Positions 49,272 through 62,583 of a DNA stretch of 64,000 nt are shown here, piece after piece. The position numbers were made by a program, and so were the translations under genes. How positions within the stretch are numbered: the first letter of the stretch is position 1; each line of letters starts with the position of its first letter. The notes under the pieces are model-generated. The model was not told where the DNA came from, did not search any database, and worked only from the letters and a program-made list of their open reading frames with translations. This stretch comes from a virus (taxonomy: Duplodnaviria > Heunggongvirae > Uroviricota > Caudoviricetes): IMG/VR virus record IMGVR_UViG_3300029142_000001, positions 1 through 64,000 of that record; one strand, 5' to 3'.

Positions 49272-49357
49272 GGGCGAGTTCCATAGCGGCCTAATGGACC
49301 GGACTCATAATCCGGCGAGTTCACACTCAAACGCAGGTTCGAATCCTGTCTCGCCCA
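49272..49357 (+). tRNA. atypical class-II-like tRNA with CAT anticodon
   Basis: Perfect acceptor gggcgag/ctcgccc, D ccat/atgg, AC ccgga/tccgg loop ctCATaa, 17-nt variable region with gagt/actc stem, T-arm gcagg-ttcgaat-cctgt; 86 nt. Confidence 0.45.
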
Positions 49358-49376
49358 TTTTAAAGGAGAATATAAC

Positions 49377-49907
49377 ATGATTTGGCTGGGATGTATTTAT
49401 ATTAGTGTAATTCTTTTGTTGGTGGCCATTTTTGATCCTGGAGATTTTTTTGGATGTATAGCATTAATGTGGTTTATTTTATCTTTATTGATGCTCCTGG
49501 TACTCACTCCCGCTTTTTATGCTGAATCCCGAAGACTTAATCCGAATAGATTGGTTCAACAAAAAGTAATTTTTGAAGAATCTATTCTTCCATCGGAAGA
49601 AGGTTACTATGGTTTATATTTAAATGAATGGAGTGAATTTCATTATGTATCAACTGGATTTGCATTTAGATATTCAGATGGAACAAAAGATTTTGTAGAA
49701 TCGTACTCAATTTCCTTTTCAGATGATGTAGATGCTCCTACAGTATTTAAGTACAAGAATATCTATGAGGTAAATGATTTGTTTTTTCCTTCTTTCAAAT
49801 CGCACATTACTCATGAAGATGGTGTATATTATTTCGTATTTCCATCATCATATCGATCAGAATTTAATACAAAATTCATTACTACTACTTTGTACGAGGA
49901 TTTTTAA
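49377..49907 (+). CDS. membrane protein
   Basis: 176 aa, two N-terminal TM helices. Confidence 0.45.
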   Translation: MIWLGCIYISVILLLVAIFDPGDFFGCIALMWFILSLLMLLVLTPAFYAESRRLNPNRLVQQKVIFEESILPSEEGYYGLYLNEWSEFHYVSTGFAFRYSDGTKDFVESYSISFSDDVDAPTVFKYKNIYEVNDLFFPSFKSHITHEDGVYYFVFPSSYRSEFNTKFITTTLYEDF

Positions 49908-50275
49908 TGGAATGGTACTTTCTTATTATTCTGGCCATTTTTATCACAAAACACCTTATTGTTGATTTTTTCTGGCAGTCTGGATATGAAGTGGCAAACA
50001 AAGGAACTTATGGACATTTCGGTGGTATTTTACATACCGGAAAACATGTCATTGTTTCGGCTTTCTTTCTTATGTTTCTTGTTTCTCCTTTGACTCTTTT
50101 TCTTCTATGTGCATTTGAATTTGTGGTCCATTACCATATGGACTGGTTTAAGATGTGGTGGGGAAAAAGAAAGAAATTTACACCAAATGATGCAAAATTT
50201 TGGCATTGGATGGGAATAGATCAATATATACATTACTTTACTTATCTGATTATGGTTGCTATAATGCTTCTGTAA
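49907..50275 (+). CDS. multi-pass membrane protein
   Basis: 122 aa with 3-4 hydrophobic segments. Confidence 0.45.
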   Translation: MEWYFLIILAIFITKHLIVDFFWQSGYEVANKGTYGHFGGILHTGKHVIVSAFFLMFLVSPLTLFLLCAFEFVVHYHMDWFKMWWGKRKKFTPNDAKFWHWMGIDQYIHYFTYLIMVAIMLL

Positions 50276-50285
50276 GATAAAATTG

Positions 50286-50358
50286 GCTCCTGTATATCAA
50301 TGGCGAGATGGCTTCCGTTACATGGAAGAGGTTGCTGGTTCGAATCCAGCCAGGAGCA
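50286..50358 (+). tRNA. tRNA-Val (anticodon TAC)
   Basis: Acceptor gctcctg/caggagc, AC cttcc/ggaag loop gtTACat, T-arm gctgg-ttcgaat-ccagc. Confidence 0.7.
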
Positions 50359-50360
50359 TT

Positions 50361-50510
50361 ATGACAAAAGAAGAAGCAAACAAAAAGTTAGAAGAAATTA
50401 TTGAAAATTATAGGAAAGAATTTATAATTTTAGATAAAATTCGTAAAGATGAGCAGGAAAAATTTGATAATTCTTGGATAGGTAAAATTGTAAACAGATT
50501 GGAATTTTAA
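50361..50510 (+). CDS. small hypothetical protein
   Basis: 49-aa ORF beginning right after the tRNA; the longer listed ORF would overlap the tRNA. Confidence 0.3.
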   Translation: MTKEEANKKLEEIIENYRKEFIILDKIRKDEQEKFDNSWIGKIVNRLEF

Positions 50511-51085
50511 TTATGAAAAATAGCACAGATTTCCAAAAAAATGTCTAGAATATTTCATTATATTTTTTCATGTATGGAACCCATTATGGGAAATGATATG
50601 CAAGAATTTGTTTTAGAATGTGAAGAAGACTAAAAATGAATAATTTATCATATAACGAAGACAAAGCGGATTTAATCAGGAAGGCAGCAGTAAATGAAGC
50701 TTTTAAGTTTCTAGAAAATCCTGATGATCTCGATGTTTTAGAAAGATTAATAGAATATGGAACTATTTTGAAAAATATAAAAAATGAAAGTGAAGGAGCA
50801 TATAGTAATGGATATTGATATTTTGACAAGTGGACTGAAAGATTTTCTGAAATCATTTGACCCAACCCTTGAAACATGCTATAATGCTGATGACCCTTCA
50901 GAATGGTATACCGGAAATGCAGATGACGATATGAGCAATGGATATGATGCTGGATATCACGCGGCACAAGAACAAATTATGGGAATTGTGAAGGCAGCAG
51001 AAGCAGGTAGATAATATATACAAAGGCGGCGTGAAACTTAAACGGTCAAGACGAAACTTTGACTCCGGATTCGTAACCGGAATTT

Positions 51086-51158
51086 GGGACGGTAGCTTAG
51101 TTGGTAAAGCGTACCGCTGATAACGGTGAGATCATAGGTTCAAGTCCTATTCGTCCTA
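51086..51158 (+). tRNA. tRNA-Ile (anticodon GAT)
   Basis: Acceptor gggacgg/tcgtcct, D gctt-agttggta-aagc, AC taccg/cggtg loop ctGATaa, T-arm atagg-ttcaagt-cctat; resembles E. coli tRNA-Ile. Confidence 0.7.
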
Positions 51159-51190
51159 TTTTTTAGATATTATTCACAGGAAATTATAAA

Positions 51191-51379
51191 ATGAATACCA
51201 AGCATAAATCTATTAGGCATTCAAAGAAAAATCTACGAATCAAATCACATCATATTGATTCTAATTTTCCACCACGGCTTAATATTGATGGGATACAATT
51301 AAAATCATCTATCCCTACAACATATTCTACCGGAGATTATATTTTATGGGGACCAAAAAGATTTAGAACAGAAAGTTGA
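51191..51379 (+). CDS. hypothetical basic protein
   Basis: 62-aa ORF. Confidence 0.35.
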   Translation: MNTKHKSIRHSKKNLRIKSHHIDSNFPPRLNIDGIQLKSSIPTTYSTGDYILWGPKRFRTES

Positions 51380-51639
51380 ATATTATGGAAACTTTTGAAG
51401 ATAAAATTGATGAATTAATCAGTCTTTTAGAGTATATGAAGGATGAAATTCCATCAGAAGAATTAAAAGAACCTTCAAATATTTCAATTGGAATTGCAAT
51501 GCATGGATGGACGCATAGAAATTCAGATATGCATAGAACTGAATACCGAATGATACGATGGGCAGATATCTATACAAGAGGCATGGGTATAGAAGCATCA
51601 TTGGTAAAATCTAGACATTTTAGTAAAATTTCAGATTAA
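51376..51639 (+). CDS. hypothetical protein
   Basis: 87-aa ORF. Confidence 0.4.
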   Translation: MNIMETFEDKIDELISLLEYMKDEIPSEELKEPSNISIGIAMHGWTHRNSDMHRTEYRMIRWADIYTRGMGIEASLVKSRHFSKISD

Positions 51640-51645
51640 AATTTG

Positions 51646-61378: not shown

Positions 61379-61428
61379 AGCATTCGGTTCTTACCCGAAA
61401 GAATAGAGTTCGATTCTCTAATCCCTTA
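61357..61428 (+). tRNA. tRNA-Lys (anticodon CTT)
   Basis: Acceptor gagggat/atccctt, D gctt-aagtggtg-aagc, AC ttcgg/ccgaa loop ttCTTac, T-arm tagag-ttcgatt-ctcta; 5' half nearly identical to the tRNA at 60857. Confidence 0.6.
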
Positions 61429-61457
61429 TTTTAAATTAAAACATAAGGAAATATATT

Positions 61458-61718
61458 ATGGATAATACACATCTAATGCAAAGATTGAATAATATTGATT
61501 ATGATTTTTTTACTTTTGGTGATAATGATTCTCGTCAGGAAGAACAAATTCTTGCTGAACTTGAAATGGCATCTGTTGATCAGTTGTTTAGAGGATATCA
61601 TAATCTTCTTCACGAAGCAGAACATTGGTCTATTGGATCGCGTATAGATCGTGTAGTCGTATCTCTTTGTTTTGAAAGAATGCAAATCATTCAAAGGCGA
61701 ATTGAAGAAATTATTTAA
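61458..61718 (+). CDS. hypothetical protein
   Basis: 86-aa ORF after AAGGAAATATATT RBS. Confidence 0.45.
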   Translation: MDNTHLMQRLNNIDYDFFTFGDNDSRQEEQILAELEMASVDQLFRGYHNLLHEAEHWSIGSRIDRVVVSLCFERMQIIQRRIEEII

Positions 61719-61723
61719 TCATT

Positions 61724-61795
61724 GCCCCTTTAGCTCAACGGTAGAGCAGGAGACTTTTAATCTCTTGGTTGTAGGTTCGAATCCTTCAGGGGGCA
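61724..61795 (+). tRNA. tRNA-Lys (anticodon TTT), second copy
   Basis: Acceptor gcccctt/agggggc, D gctc-aacggta-gagc, AC ggaga/tctct loop ctTTTaa, T-arm gtagg-ttcgaat-ccttc (one mismatch). Confidence 0.55.
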
Positions 61796-61973
61796 TTAAA
61801 AATGAGTATATTTGGTATCTATGCCAATTTTGCGGGTGTAAAATAGGTATCACCTGTCAATATACGGGATTACCCGAAGGTTGGGATTATGTCAGGACTT
61901 CCATGCTTGAGTTGTCAAGGCACCAGCTACAGTTTAAGCATTGTGGGAATGGAGACCCACTATATTCATTTTA

Positions 61974-62057
61974 GAATCGGCTGGGCGATGGCGAGCCCAA
62001 GAGACCGTACATCTCTTAGAAACAATTTTTGTGATGGTTCGAATCCATCCCGATTCA
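61974..62057 (+). tRNA. class-II tRNA with GTA anticodon (Tyr-like, atypical anticodon loop)
   Basis: Perfect acceptor gaatcgg/ccgattc, D gggc-gatggcga-gccc, AC agaga/tctct loop ccGTAca (C33, C37), 16-nt variable arm, T-arm gatgg-ttcgaat-ccatc. Confidence 0.45.
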
Positions 62058-62077
62058 TTTTTTTTATTTTAAATTGC

Positions 62078-62105
62078 TTGACTTTCTCATATTTCACGCT
62101 ATAAT
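62078..62105 (+). promoter_or_regulatory. promoter (TTGACTTT-16-TATAAT)
   Basis: -35 at 62078-62083, -10 at 62100-62105. Confidence 0.55.
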
Positions 62106-62258
62106 ATAACTCTCAACCATATTGTGGGTAAAAGATAAGAGTGAAAACACCGCCTAGAAAGTTCGATTCTTTCATATCTAGAAATGAGAGCCAGATATCT
62201 GGAAGGATAGGTCAAAAGAGTTCGATTCTCTTAATATGGTTTTAAAAGGAGATTTCAA

Positions 62259-62468
62259 ATGTTTGAAGGATTTATTATTGCTATTTTCATTATTACTGTT
62301 TTGGTTGGATTGGCATTCATTGTAACAGCAAATATGTTTCCTGGAATGACTGAAATCGGAGATCCGACACCTAAGCGATATCGAAATGTTCCTATCGGAC
62401 AAATTAATCATACCAAATATTATGGAAAAGTATAAATCGAATGAGAACCTTGGGAAGTCCAAGTAGTA
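62259..62468 (+). CDS. small membrane protein (ORF absent from the supplied ORF track)
   Basis: 69 codons read directly from the sequence after a strong AAAAGGAGATTTCAA RBS; N-terminal TM helix FIIAIFIITVLVGLAFIV. Confidence 0.5.
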
Positions 62469-62499
62469 TTATTCCCCAGAGTCTTCGGACTCCATATTT

Positions 62500-62583
62500 G
62501 ATTGGGTGGCTGAATGGTTTAAGCAACGGACTGTTAATCCGTGAGATTAATTCTCAATGCAGGTTCGAATCCTGTCCCAATCG
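62500..62583 (+). tRNA. atypical class-II (Ser-like body) tRNA with GTT anticodon
   Basis: Perfect acceptor gattggg/cccaatc, D-arm tggctgaatggtttaagc like tRNA-Ser, AC acgga/tccgt loop ctGTTaa, 16-nt variable arm with gaga/tctc stem, T-arm gcagg-ttcgaat-cctgt, discriminator G. Confidence 0.45.

Follow-up and report, generated by a model that had tools for sequence, protein, structure and literature searches.

We describe two transfer RNA (tRNA) genes in a 64,000-nucleotide stretch of DNA from a virus of the class Caudoviricetes (IMG/VR record IMGVR_UViG_3300029142_000001, positions 1 to 64,000; this whole stretch is hereafter called the window). Both genes combine a long variable arm with the anticodon CAU or GUU, and they are referred to here as tRNA(CAU) and tRNA(GUU). 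Textbooks and reviews confine the long variable arm to the Leu, Ser, bacterial Tyr, and Sec tRNAs. Bacterial tRNA genes have also been called structurally uniform in a review (PMC4033280). The two window genes contradict the textbook restriction and are ordinary members of a widespread design that has remained unremarked in databases, a large, mostly phage-borne set that we define in this analysis as the long-arm class-I isoacceptor family. Judged from their sequences, both tRNAs probably decode the codons that match their anticodons.

Structure of the two long-arm tRNAs

ARAGORN and the Rfam tRNA model RF00005 (gathering score 29) were applied to the window. ARAGORN called 24 tRNA genes, all on the + strand and all between positions 46188 and 63246, including the two long-arm genes (Table 1). 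RF00005 matched both along its full length (model positions 1–71), with scores of 54.6 bits for tRNA(CAU) (E 1.3e-11) and 62.1 bits for tRNA(GUU) (E 1e-13); no non-canonical pairs were flagged, and the additional bases of both tRNAs were modeled as an insertion in the variable region. A preliminary description of this DNA had reported two well-formed elements with 7-bp acceptor stems, class-II-type long variable arms, and CAU and GUU anticodons, and ARAGORN, RF00005, and direct reading of the sequence all agree with it. Both triplets sit at the anticodon position of the covariance model, which neither moved an anticodon nor scored either element as a pseudogene.

tRNA(CAU) is 86 nucleotides (nt) long and has an acceptor stem of seven Watson–Crick pairs (GGGCGAG/CTCGCCC) with A73; its 4-bp D stem (CCAT/ATGG) encloses a 9-nt loop, and the last C of its variable region is able to form the standard 15:48 pair with G15. 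tRNA(GUU) is 84 nt long, with seven Watson–Crick pairs in the acceptor stem (GATTGGG/CCCAATC), G73, and a 3-bp D stem (GCT/AGC) with a 10-nt loop. The boundaries given by ARAGORN for the latter gene (62499–62584) add an eighth acceptor pair, U-G, and the Rfam boundaries (62500–62583), which leave G73 as the discriminator, are the better reading. The T arm GCAGG-TTCGAAT-CCTGT is common to both tRNAs. When class II was defined by a variable region of at least 10 nt with its own stem–loop, both tRNAs belonged to it, with variable regions of 17 and 16 nt and a 4-bp stem in each. A second class II feature, an enlarged D loop on a D stem of 3 bp that leaves positions 13 and 22 unpaired, was present in tRNA(GUU) and not in tRNA(CAU). 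The 8/4, 9/3, or 8/5 acceptor/T-stem configurations of allo-tRNAs and tRNA-Sec-like molecules were found in neither tRNA, both of which are 7/5.

As the preliminary description had also noted, tRNA(GUU) is an extra copy, because a tRNA-Asn(GUU) of class-I length lies 590 nt downstream. The long-arm copy scores above the class-I-length copy (62.1 vs 55.7 bits, RF00005). In the class-I-length copy, U53-U61 replaces the near-invariant T-stem pair G53-C61. Duplicate or surplus genes within a large array, which holds at least one degenerate tRNA-like element (61974–62057) as well, might be thought to be decaying pseudogenes. However, both long-arm genes have high scores without a single non-canonical pair, the long-arm tRNA-Asn outscores its class-I-length neighbor, and homologues in other phages carry compensatory changes, which leaves the pseudogene explanation with almost no probability.

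Distribution of the long-arm design and its shared hairpin

Sensitive blastn searches revealed that both window tRNAs have long-arm homologues in other phages, where they bear other isotype names. Xanthomonas phage XacN1 encodes an 89-nt tRNA-Asn and an 89-nt tRNA-Cys among these homologues, and many T5-like phages encode a long-arm tRNA-Thr(UGU) of 86–87 nt. Over the whole analysis, homologues were identified in XacN1, Bas33, and the loci L021, L075, and L091. The long-arm tRNA-Asn of phage Bas33 has full-length homologues in 570 GenBank phage records, and in the D and anticodon arms it almost matches window tRNA(GUU). A closer relative of tRNA(GUU), at L075, shows compensatory changes in the acceptor and T stems. 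The stretches read of Bas33 (T5-like), Mineola (a T4-like phage of Klebsiella), and tuntematon (Phapecoctavirus) contain no tRNA-Asn apart from the long-arm form, and near-identical D and anticodon arms occur across unrelated phage families.

A search pattern made up of the tRNA-Asn anticodon arm and the T loop, at a spacing that fits long-arm tRNAs only, was found in 58 IMG/VR stretches, vs six matches in 185,579 bacterial and archaeal species genomes (one genome per species), and at least two of these six were dense tRNA arrays resembling mis-binned phage contigs. Among the 757 tRNAs that ARAGORN called at the pattern-matched loci, 209 had a variable region of at least 10 nt. Beyond Leu, Ser, Tyr, and the Asn tRNAs for which the loci were selected, the isotypes with a long arm were Thr(UGU), Cys, CAU, Trp, Asp, Ile, and Gln, as well as Glu, Pro, Val, Phe, Ala, Gly, and His, with one Lys in a contig from the genome scan. 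The reverse switch was also observed: tRNA-Leu of class-I length (77 nt) occurs in T5-like phages (e.g., Bas33, locus L196, 5603–5679 and 10565–10641), and 19 distinct examples were present in the loci. A search of the openly accessible literature found no account of phage tRNAs for Asn, Thr, or Cys with a long variable arm.

Two contigs assigned to bacteria deserve separate mention. L072, an 11.4-kb contig binned in a metagenome-assembled genome (MAG) of Flavobacteriales, carries 21 tRNAs in 8 kb, including long-arm Lys(UUU), Ile(UAU), Asn(GUU), and Glu(UUC) tRNAs of 90, 93, 83, and 89 nt, respectively, together with tRNAs of class-I length, a second Asn among them. It is probably a phage contig. 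L074, a 135-kb contig of a Devosia MAG, contains a lone GUU tRNA (2414–2497) with G73, a mismatched acceptor stem, and the D arm GCGGAATGGTAGACGC, which resembles that of Escherichia coli tRNA-Leu; this gene is possibly a prophage remnant or a Leu-type gene whose anticodon has shifted.

The arms themselves share a module. Taken singly, 4 bp in 16–17 nt is not significant, and the shuffle p values for the hairpins of the window's two arms were 0.05 and 0.45. Across 85 distinct long-arm tRNAs other than Leu, Ser, and Tyr, in a test made without selection, the summed hairpin length exceeded that of the shuffled sequences in 1000 of 1000 trials, and 36 of the 85 hairpins were capped with a GNRA tetraloop. 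In the dataset, the median arm of the long-arm Asn, Thr, Cys, and CAU tRNAs had a stem of 3–4 bp and a 3′ tail of 3–4 nt, compared with 5 bp and 1 nt in Ser, 4 bp and 1 nt in Leu, and 3 bp and 3 nt in Tyr tRNAs. Within the window, the arms of the three tRNA-Ser have stems of 4–6 bp and a 1-nt tail, whereas those of the long-arm pair have 4 bp and tails of 3–4 nt. The arms of the long-arm class-I isoacceptors thus resemble those of Tyr, not Ser.

The commonest layouts, represented by 26 sequences, consist of one nucleotide, a 3–4-bp stem, a tetraloop, and a tail. The tetraloop was GNRA in 20 of the 26, and the tail approximated CAUC, the four bases of which were found in 23, 21, 20, and 23 sequences, respectively. 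Each stem position showed three to five standard pair types. This N/stem/GNRA/CAUC module recurs in the Asn, Thr, Cys, and CAU tRNAs. In 18 sequences with a 15-nt variable region, all stem pairs varied on both sides and slid controls dropped to 20–41% pairing, although the 100% pairing of this set is partly circular because the sequences were picked by the stem that ARAGORN had drawn. tRNA(CAU) has the standard layout with the tail AAAC; its arrangement, s((((vvvv))))ssss, is among the three commonest in the family and is the same as that of the XacN1 tRNA-Asn. tRNA(GUU) has a pentaloop and a 3-nt tail. Both window tRNAs have the features by which the family is defined, namely 0–1 nt, a 3–4-bp stem, a 4–5-nt loop, a 3–4-nt tail, the discriminator of the cognate isotype, and homologues in phages.

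Amino-acid identity of the long-arm tRNAs

In bacteria, Asn identity resides in the three anticodon bases and G73, and this set can be transplanted into tRNA-Lys (reviewed in PMC9976931). All four elements (G34, U35, U36, and G73) are present in tRNA(GUU). A classifier that used only the acceptor stem and position 73 (cross-validated accuracy 0.60) assigned tRNA(GUU) to Asn (p = 0.60), and, of the 46 distinct long-arm Asn tRNAs, it put 36 into the Asn/Gln/Asp group and six into Ser. G73 was present in 42 of these 46. The first pair U1-A72, which is of the Asn/Gln type, was found in 27 of the 46 long-arm Asn tRNAs and in 7 of the 12 that are of class I; none of the 40 Ser and none of the 40 Leu tRNAs had it, and one of the 25 Tyr tRNAs did. 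Other isotypes behaved in the same way: U73 occurred in all five long-arm Cys tRNAs, and G1-C72 with C2-G71 in all seven long-arm Thr tRNAs, and the long-arm forms carried G73 in Trp and Asp, G-1 and C73 in His, G3:U70 in Ala, U73 in Gly, and C1-G72 in Pro. If the family consisted of Ser, Leu, or Tyr bodies with swapped anticodons, discriminators and acceptors like those of Ser, Leu, or Tyr would be expected, and this is not what is observed. As read from these sequences, the discriminators of the family and, where defined, its acceptor identity marks follow the amino acid of the anticodon, and tRNA(GUU) is probably a tRNA-Asn, matching its anticodon. Asn codons account for 5.8% of the codons in the window open reading frames (ORFs). 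A nearest-neighbor comparison of tRNA bodies without the variable region was biased, because the search pattern had fixed the anticodon stem and T loop, and was not used.

For tRNA(CAU), the anticodon and A73 fit an elongator tRNA-Met or a tRNA-Ile2. The initiator tRNA-fMet, recognizable by a mismatched 1-72 pair and a run of three G-C pairs at the base of the anticodon stem, was rejected because G1-C72 is paired and the anticodon stem, CCGGA/UCCGG, has no GGG/CCC run. Elsewhere, a long-arm CAU tRNA at L040 (1292–1376) does have the initiator-type GGG/CCC run, so that even an initiator-like tRNA can bear the arm. According to the E. coli rule, the acceptor determinants of TilS are C4-G69 and C5-G68; in tRNA(CAU), the former is present and pair 5-68 is G-C. 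In the window, AUA is used 8.4 times per 1000 codons vs 25.9 per 1000 for ATG. Met and Ile2 are roughly even for this tRNA. Two observations count against cognate identity here: the acceptor-only classifier preferred Leu (p = 0.64), and the acceptor stems nearest to that of tRNA(CAU) belong to six isotypes, which makes the acceptor uninformative. For CAU tRNAs, the classifier is uninformative, as it gives Ile2 and Met a single label and its training set does not cover plastid sequences.

Long-arm CAU tRNAs also occur outside phages. At least 117 of them, 92 distinct, were found in the metagenome scan, and many lie on algal plastid contigs, near psbC/psbD, rbcL, atpB, rpoB, accD, and ycf90. Eight contigs that resemble algal plastid genomes (L083, L089, L092, L095, L113, L122, L126, and L137) carry long-arm CAU tRNAs of 85–87 nt with a trnI(CAU)-like acceptor; plastid genes were identified with Pfam on L083, L092, L095, and L113, and the other four were grouped with these on the likeness of their tRNA and ORF arrangement. 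The acceptor of these tRNAs, GCAUCY, resembles that of plastid trnI(CAU), as in land plants. Another group, with acceptors beginning GGGCCGG, has both C4-G69 and C5-G68 and occurs in GC-rich bacterial or prophage contexts. Long-arm CAU tRNAs are therefore not specific to phages and, where this can be judged, look like Ile2. tRNA(CAU) shares the anticodon and A73 with the plastid and bacterial tRNA-Ile2(CAU) but differs in its acceptor, GGGCGAG, which has C4-G69 but G5-C68.

The preliminary description had suggested that such tRNAs could mis-decode Asn or Met/Ile codons. In Ser- or Leu-type bodies, the arm would recruit seryl-tRNA synthetase (SerRS), or leucyl-tRNA synthetase (LeuRS) for the copy with A73, and Ser or Leu would be inserted deliberately at these codons. 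SerRS and LeuRS do not read the anticodon. Several features could be taken in this sense: tRNA(GUU) has G73, C11-G24, a D arm like that of Leu or Ser tRNAs, and a possible A15:U48 pair, tRNA(CAU) has A73 and the Leu-like acceptor noted above, and the nematode nev-tRNAs are a precedent (PMC3333845). However, neither window tRNA carries a complete set of Ser or Leu marks. tRNA(GUU) has G73 but A2-U71, where all three tRNA-Ser of the phage have G-C, and tRNA(CAU) has G2-C71 but A73; the Ser-type arm of this phage (4–6 bp with a 1-nt 3′ tail) is found in neither. Leu identity (A73, A15:U48, and a Leu-type D loop) is likewise incomplete in both: the Leu-like D arm and possible A15:U48 of tRNA(GUU) are accompanied by G73, one of the listed antideterminants that act against LeuRS as well as TyrRS (PMC9976931), and the A73 of tRNA(CAU) by a D stem of 4 bp and by G15:C48, whereas Leu variable regions in the dataset end in U. 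The identity marks track the anticodon throughout the family, and the long-arm form is the sole tRNA-Asn in the stretches read from three phage families. Deliberate mistranslation is thus very unlikely, and the suggested likeness of tRNA(GUU) to tRNA-Ser extends to the class-II-like 3-bp D stem and G73 and not to the geometry of the arm.

Possible nuclease evasion, genomic setting, and significance

Overall, we lean slightly towards the explanation that both elements would be working elongator tRNAs of cognate identity whose arm evades host nucleases, the second part of which, evasion as the reason for the arm, is a tentative proposal when taken by itself. tRNA(GUU) would be charged by the host asparaginyl-tRNA synthetase (AsnRS) via G34-U35-U36 and G73, and tRNA(CAU) by the methionyl enzyme, or by the isoleucyl enzyme if the host TilS turned C34 into lysidine. 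The synthetases, EF-Tu, and the ribosome would tolerate the arm, and decoding would be normal. The arm is predicted to project from the junction alongside the D arm and the anticodon stem's 3′ strand, and evasion is proposed because this position coincides with the region where known defence nucleases dock or cut. Host nucleases that target tRNAs would then act poorly on the phage copy and destroy the host one. More generally, it is conceivable, though doubtful, that the arm is an unrecognized anti-defence device in which a compact GNRA-capped hairpin beside the anticodon stem and D arm would sterically keep nucleases of the AriB or Old type from reading the tRNAs for Asn, Thr, Cys, Met/Ile, and others, which synthetases and the ribosome would go on accepting; such a shape-based escape would, if true, differ from the published point-mutation routes.

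Several known systems attack the isotypes concerned. The AriB nuclease of PARIS cuts the E. coli tRNAs Lys(UUU) and Thr(UGU) as well as Asn(GUU) on the 3′ strand of their anticodon stem, a predicted structure gives it a second contact at the D loop, and the T5 versions of tRNA-Lys, Thr, and Asn neutralize PARIS (PMC12409363). P2 Old breaks tRNA-Thr(UGU) in its anticodon stem, and the cell is rescued by Thr tRNAs of phages (PMC12445682). Escape from Retron-Eco7 by the tRNA-Tyr of a T5-like phage requires a variable loop that is 5 nt longer (PMC12673091). Bas33 is rescued from PARIS by T5 tRNA-Lys alone (PMC12409363); this phage has no tRNA-Lys(UUU), and its only Thr(UGU) and Asn(GUU) tRNAs are long-arm. 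The rescue by T5 tRNA-Lys alone suggests that the long-arm Thr tRNA of Bas33, and perhaps its Asn tRNA, function and survive AriB. The RNA-ligase genes, four of which lie in the window, also point to tRNA-cleavage pressure.

Other observations speak against evasion as the reason for the arm. The Thr and Asn tRNAs of T5 itself are of class-I length, with changes in the anticodon stem, yet escape AriB; the arm is thus dispensable for escape, the T5 rescue experiments are no test of it, and only the Bas33 result bears on it, and indirectly. Lys(UUU), the prime target of PARIS and PrrC, had a long arm in 1 of 28 cases, and Arg in 0 of 42. Bas34, which has its own tRNA-Asn, be it long-arm or not, still needed T5 tRNA-Asn (PMC12409363). 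tRNA(GUU) retains UAAUC/C, the AriB cut site in E. coli tRNA-Asn. The plastid and bacterial CAU tRNAs show, moreover, that such an arm can exist without phage–host conflict.

The link to host nucleases drawn in the preliminary description is plausible for a working tRNA that evades them but not for a decoy. In the latter case, the tRNAs would serve chiefly as competitive inhibitors of a host tRNA nuclease instead of decoding. The PARIS study raised the idea that some viral tRNAs might competitively inhibit AriB when overexpressed (PMC12409363), and the cut-site sequence kept in tRNA(GUU) would suit such a role. However, both tRNAs have kept their acceptor stems and T arms intact, together with their identity marks, and the sole tRNA-Asn in the stretches of three phage families must decode if the phage tRNA decodes at all, so that a decoy role is highly improbable.

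The window is AT-rich (approximately 34% G+C) and resembles a piece of a large phage genome. Its genes include those for thymidylate synthase, NAMPT, an RNase H/FEN-type nuclease, glycosyltransferases, HNH endonucleases, and a class II ribonucleotide reductase. The gene for the reductase (22138–25560) is split by an intein, which contains a LAGLIDADG endonuclease domain. No synthetase or TilS gene was seen in profile scans of the window ORFs. Megablast of window positions 46–64 kb against phages returned only a 54-nt tRNA fragment and no close relative, tblastx of the window against all loci returned only fragments of HNH, thymidylate synthase, and NAMPT genes, and the ORF downstream of tRNA(CAU) had no relative in IMG/VR.

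Some further elements of the tRNA array are unusual. The second tRNA-Tyr(GTA) called by ARAGORN (61974–62057) has C33 and C37 in the anticodon loop, a bulged acceptor, and no Rfam match at E ≤ 1, and is probably a degenerate tRNA or tRNA-like element. tRNA-Ser(UGA) (46269–46351) and tRNA-Ser(GGA) (47467–47550) have unusual D arms and score 44 and 36 bits, respectively, with the tRNA-Sec model (threshold 47), above their scores with the general tRNA model. Between tRNA-Gly and tRNA-Thr, positions 53656–53765 gave a weak match to transfer-messenger RNA (20 bits vs a gathering score of 47).

With four genes of the RNA-ligase type in its 64 kb, next to an array of 24 tRNA genes, the window shows an unusually heavy investment in RNA repair (Table 1). 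GNRA-capped hairpins are common docking sites for proteins and RNA. Together with this wealth of RNA-repair genes, this could favor an arm that serves as a handle by which a phage factor, such as an RNA ligase or a processing or modification enzyme, tells phage from host tRNAs. However, this type of arm occurs in T5-like, T4-like, Phapecoctavirus, and XacN1 phages with very different accessory genes, and no co-occurring protein was identified, which makes a handle very improbable.

Table 1. Positions in the window of the long-arm tRNAs, their variable regions, and neighboring or related genes
Feature	Position	Strand	Evidence and remarks
Long-arm tRNA, anticodon CAU at 49306–49308	49272–49357	+	ARAGORN, RF00005; A73, 7/5 cloverleaf, 4-bp D stem
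Variable region of tRNA(CAU), 17 nt	49316–49332	+	C, GAGT 49317–49320, loop TCAC, ACTC 49325–49328, tail AAAC
Long-arm tRNA-Asn(GUU) (probable isotype), anticodon at 62533–62535	62500–62583	+	ARAGORN, RF00005; G73, 7/5 cloverleaf
Variable region of tRNA(GUU), 16 nt	62543–62558	+	GAGA 62543–62546, loop TTAAT, TCTC 62552–62555, tail AAT
Second tRNA-Asn(GUU), class-I length, G73	63174–63245	+	ARAGORN, RF00005 55.7 bits
HNH endonuclease ORF, ends directly before tRNA(CAU)	48780–49271	+	phrog_2255, E 9e-22; C-terminal motif LLCANCHAELH; possible mobile cassette
Paralogous HNH endonuclease ORF between long-arm and class-I-length tRNA-Asn	62602–63165	+	phrog_2255, E 1.8e-23
T4 Rnl1-type RNA ligase	26777–27874	+	PF09511, E 2e-14
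RNA ligase, PF09414 family	31339–32313	+	PF09414
RtcB RNA ligase	42574–43845	+	PF01139, E 5.9e-112; type of ligase that repairs cut tRNA
RNA-ligase-like ORF within tRNA array	56136–56810	+	phrog_24030 RNA ligase, E 2e-54

The immediate neighbors of the long-arm genes bear on a further explanation, in which decoding is cognate and the arm has no adaptive role, having arisen by recombination or drift in dense tRNA arrays and spread horizontally, perhaps with homing endonucleases; synthetases that recognize anticodon and discriminator would tolerate a class-II-like core. The two HNH ORFs in Table 1 are the sole copies of their family in the window, and each adjoins a long-arm tRNA. The arrangement of an HNH gene between two Asn genes is repeated at L058 (1692–2009), and the tRNA cluster of Mineola holds a SegB-like homing endonuclease. 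The existence of the reverse switch in tRNA-Leu, both in Bas33 and in the 19 distinct examples from the loci, and the near-identical D and anticodon arms in unrelated phage families are also consistent with a neutral arm. Across the loci, however, HNH genes of this family were not enriched beside long-arm tRNAs (within 300 nt of 7–11% of them vs 5% of class-I tRNAs), and the nearest tRNA was of class I for 13 of 15 HNH copies; the proximity of the HNH genes is a possible link to mobility, not an explanation. The hairpin, GNRA loop, and CAUC tail are, moreover, kept with covariation among distant phages, and the role as sole tRNA-Asn in the stretches of three phage families suggests purifying selection, though maybe on folding only. 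A neutral arm is therefore rather unlikely, although it is a more serious candidate than mistranslation, a decoy, or a handle.

Of the known systems, the nematode nev-tRNAs (PMC3333845, PMC4033280) likewise carry a long arm on class-I anticodons (Gly and Ile) in a 7/5 cloverleaf, but they have Leu identity, are charged with Leu, and mis-decode, whereas the window pair has cognate marks and a shorter arm and is borne by a phage. The allo-tRNAs and selC* tRNA-Cys (Mukai et al., PMC5389517) are long-arm tRNAs of bacteria and phages with non-Ser anticodons that were also mined from metagenomes; they differ in their 8/4 or 9/3 configuration, as opposed to 7/5 in the window, their tRNA-Sec-like D arm, and the Ser identity of most allo-tRNAs. 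In Streptomyces coelicolor, a type I short-arm tRNA-Leu (PMC6614811) provides another case of one isoacceptor present in both arm classes with one synthetase, but there, in a bacterium, the switch has the opposite direction, with class II giving way to class I; the same reverse switch is the one seen here in phages.

The window tRNAs are functionally closest to the nuclease-resistant tRNA variants of phages (PMC12409363, PMC12445682, PMC12673091, PMC10264068), with a structural solution that those papers do not describe. Those variants are also phage copies of the isoacceptors that are cut (Asn GUU and Thr UGU), they are cognate, functional, and structurally unlike the host tRNA, and the length of the variable loop is decisive for the SP15 tRNA-Tyr against Retron-Eco7. 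In contrast to the long-arm tRNAs, the published class-I escapes are point changes in the anticodon stem–loop or D loop. The PARIS, Old, and Retron-Eco7 papers make no mention of long arms on Asn or Thr tRNAs (PMC12409363, PMC12445682, PMC12673091), and the word "variable" is absent from three of the papers in the set of four cited above.

Hundreds of sequenced phages carry such genes, among them laboratory coliphages, in which they are annotated plainly as tRNA-Asn or tRNA-Thr, and the window requires no assumption of recoding or mistranslation. If the arm is neutral, AsnRS and the threonyl and cysteinyl synthetases, among others, tolerate a class-II core, which would be useful for tRNA engineering and for annotation tools that infer isotype from shape. 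If the arm does protect, it would represent a new principle in the tRNA arms race between phages and bacteria, and the long-arm tRNAs would be ready-made scaffolds for nuclease-resistant tRNAs.

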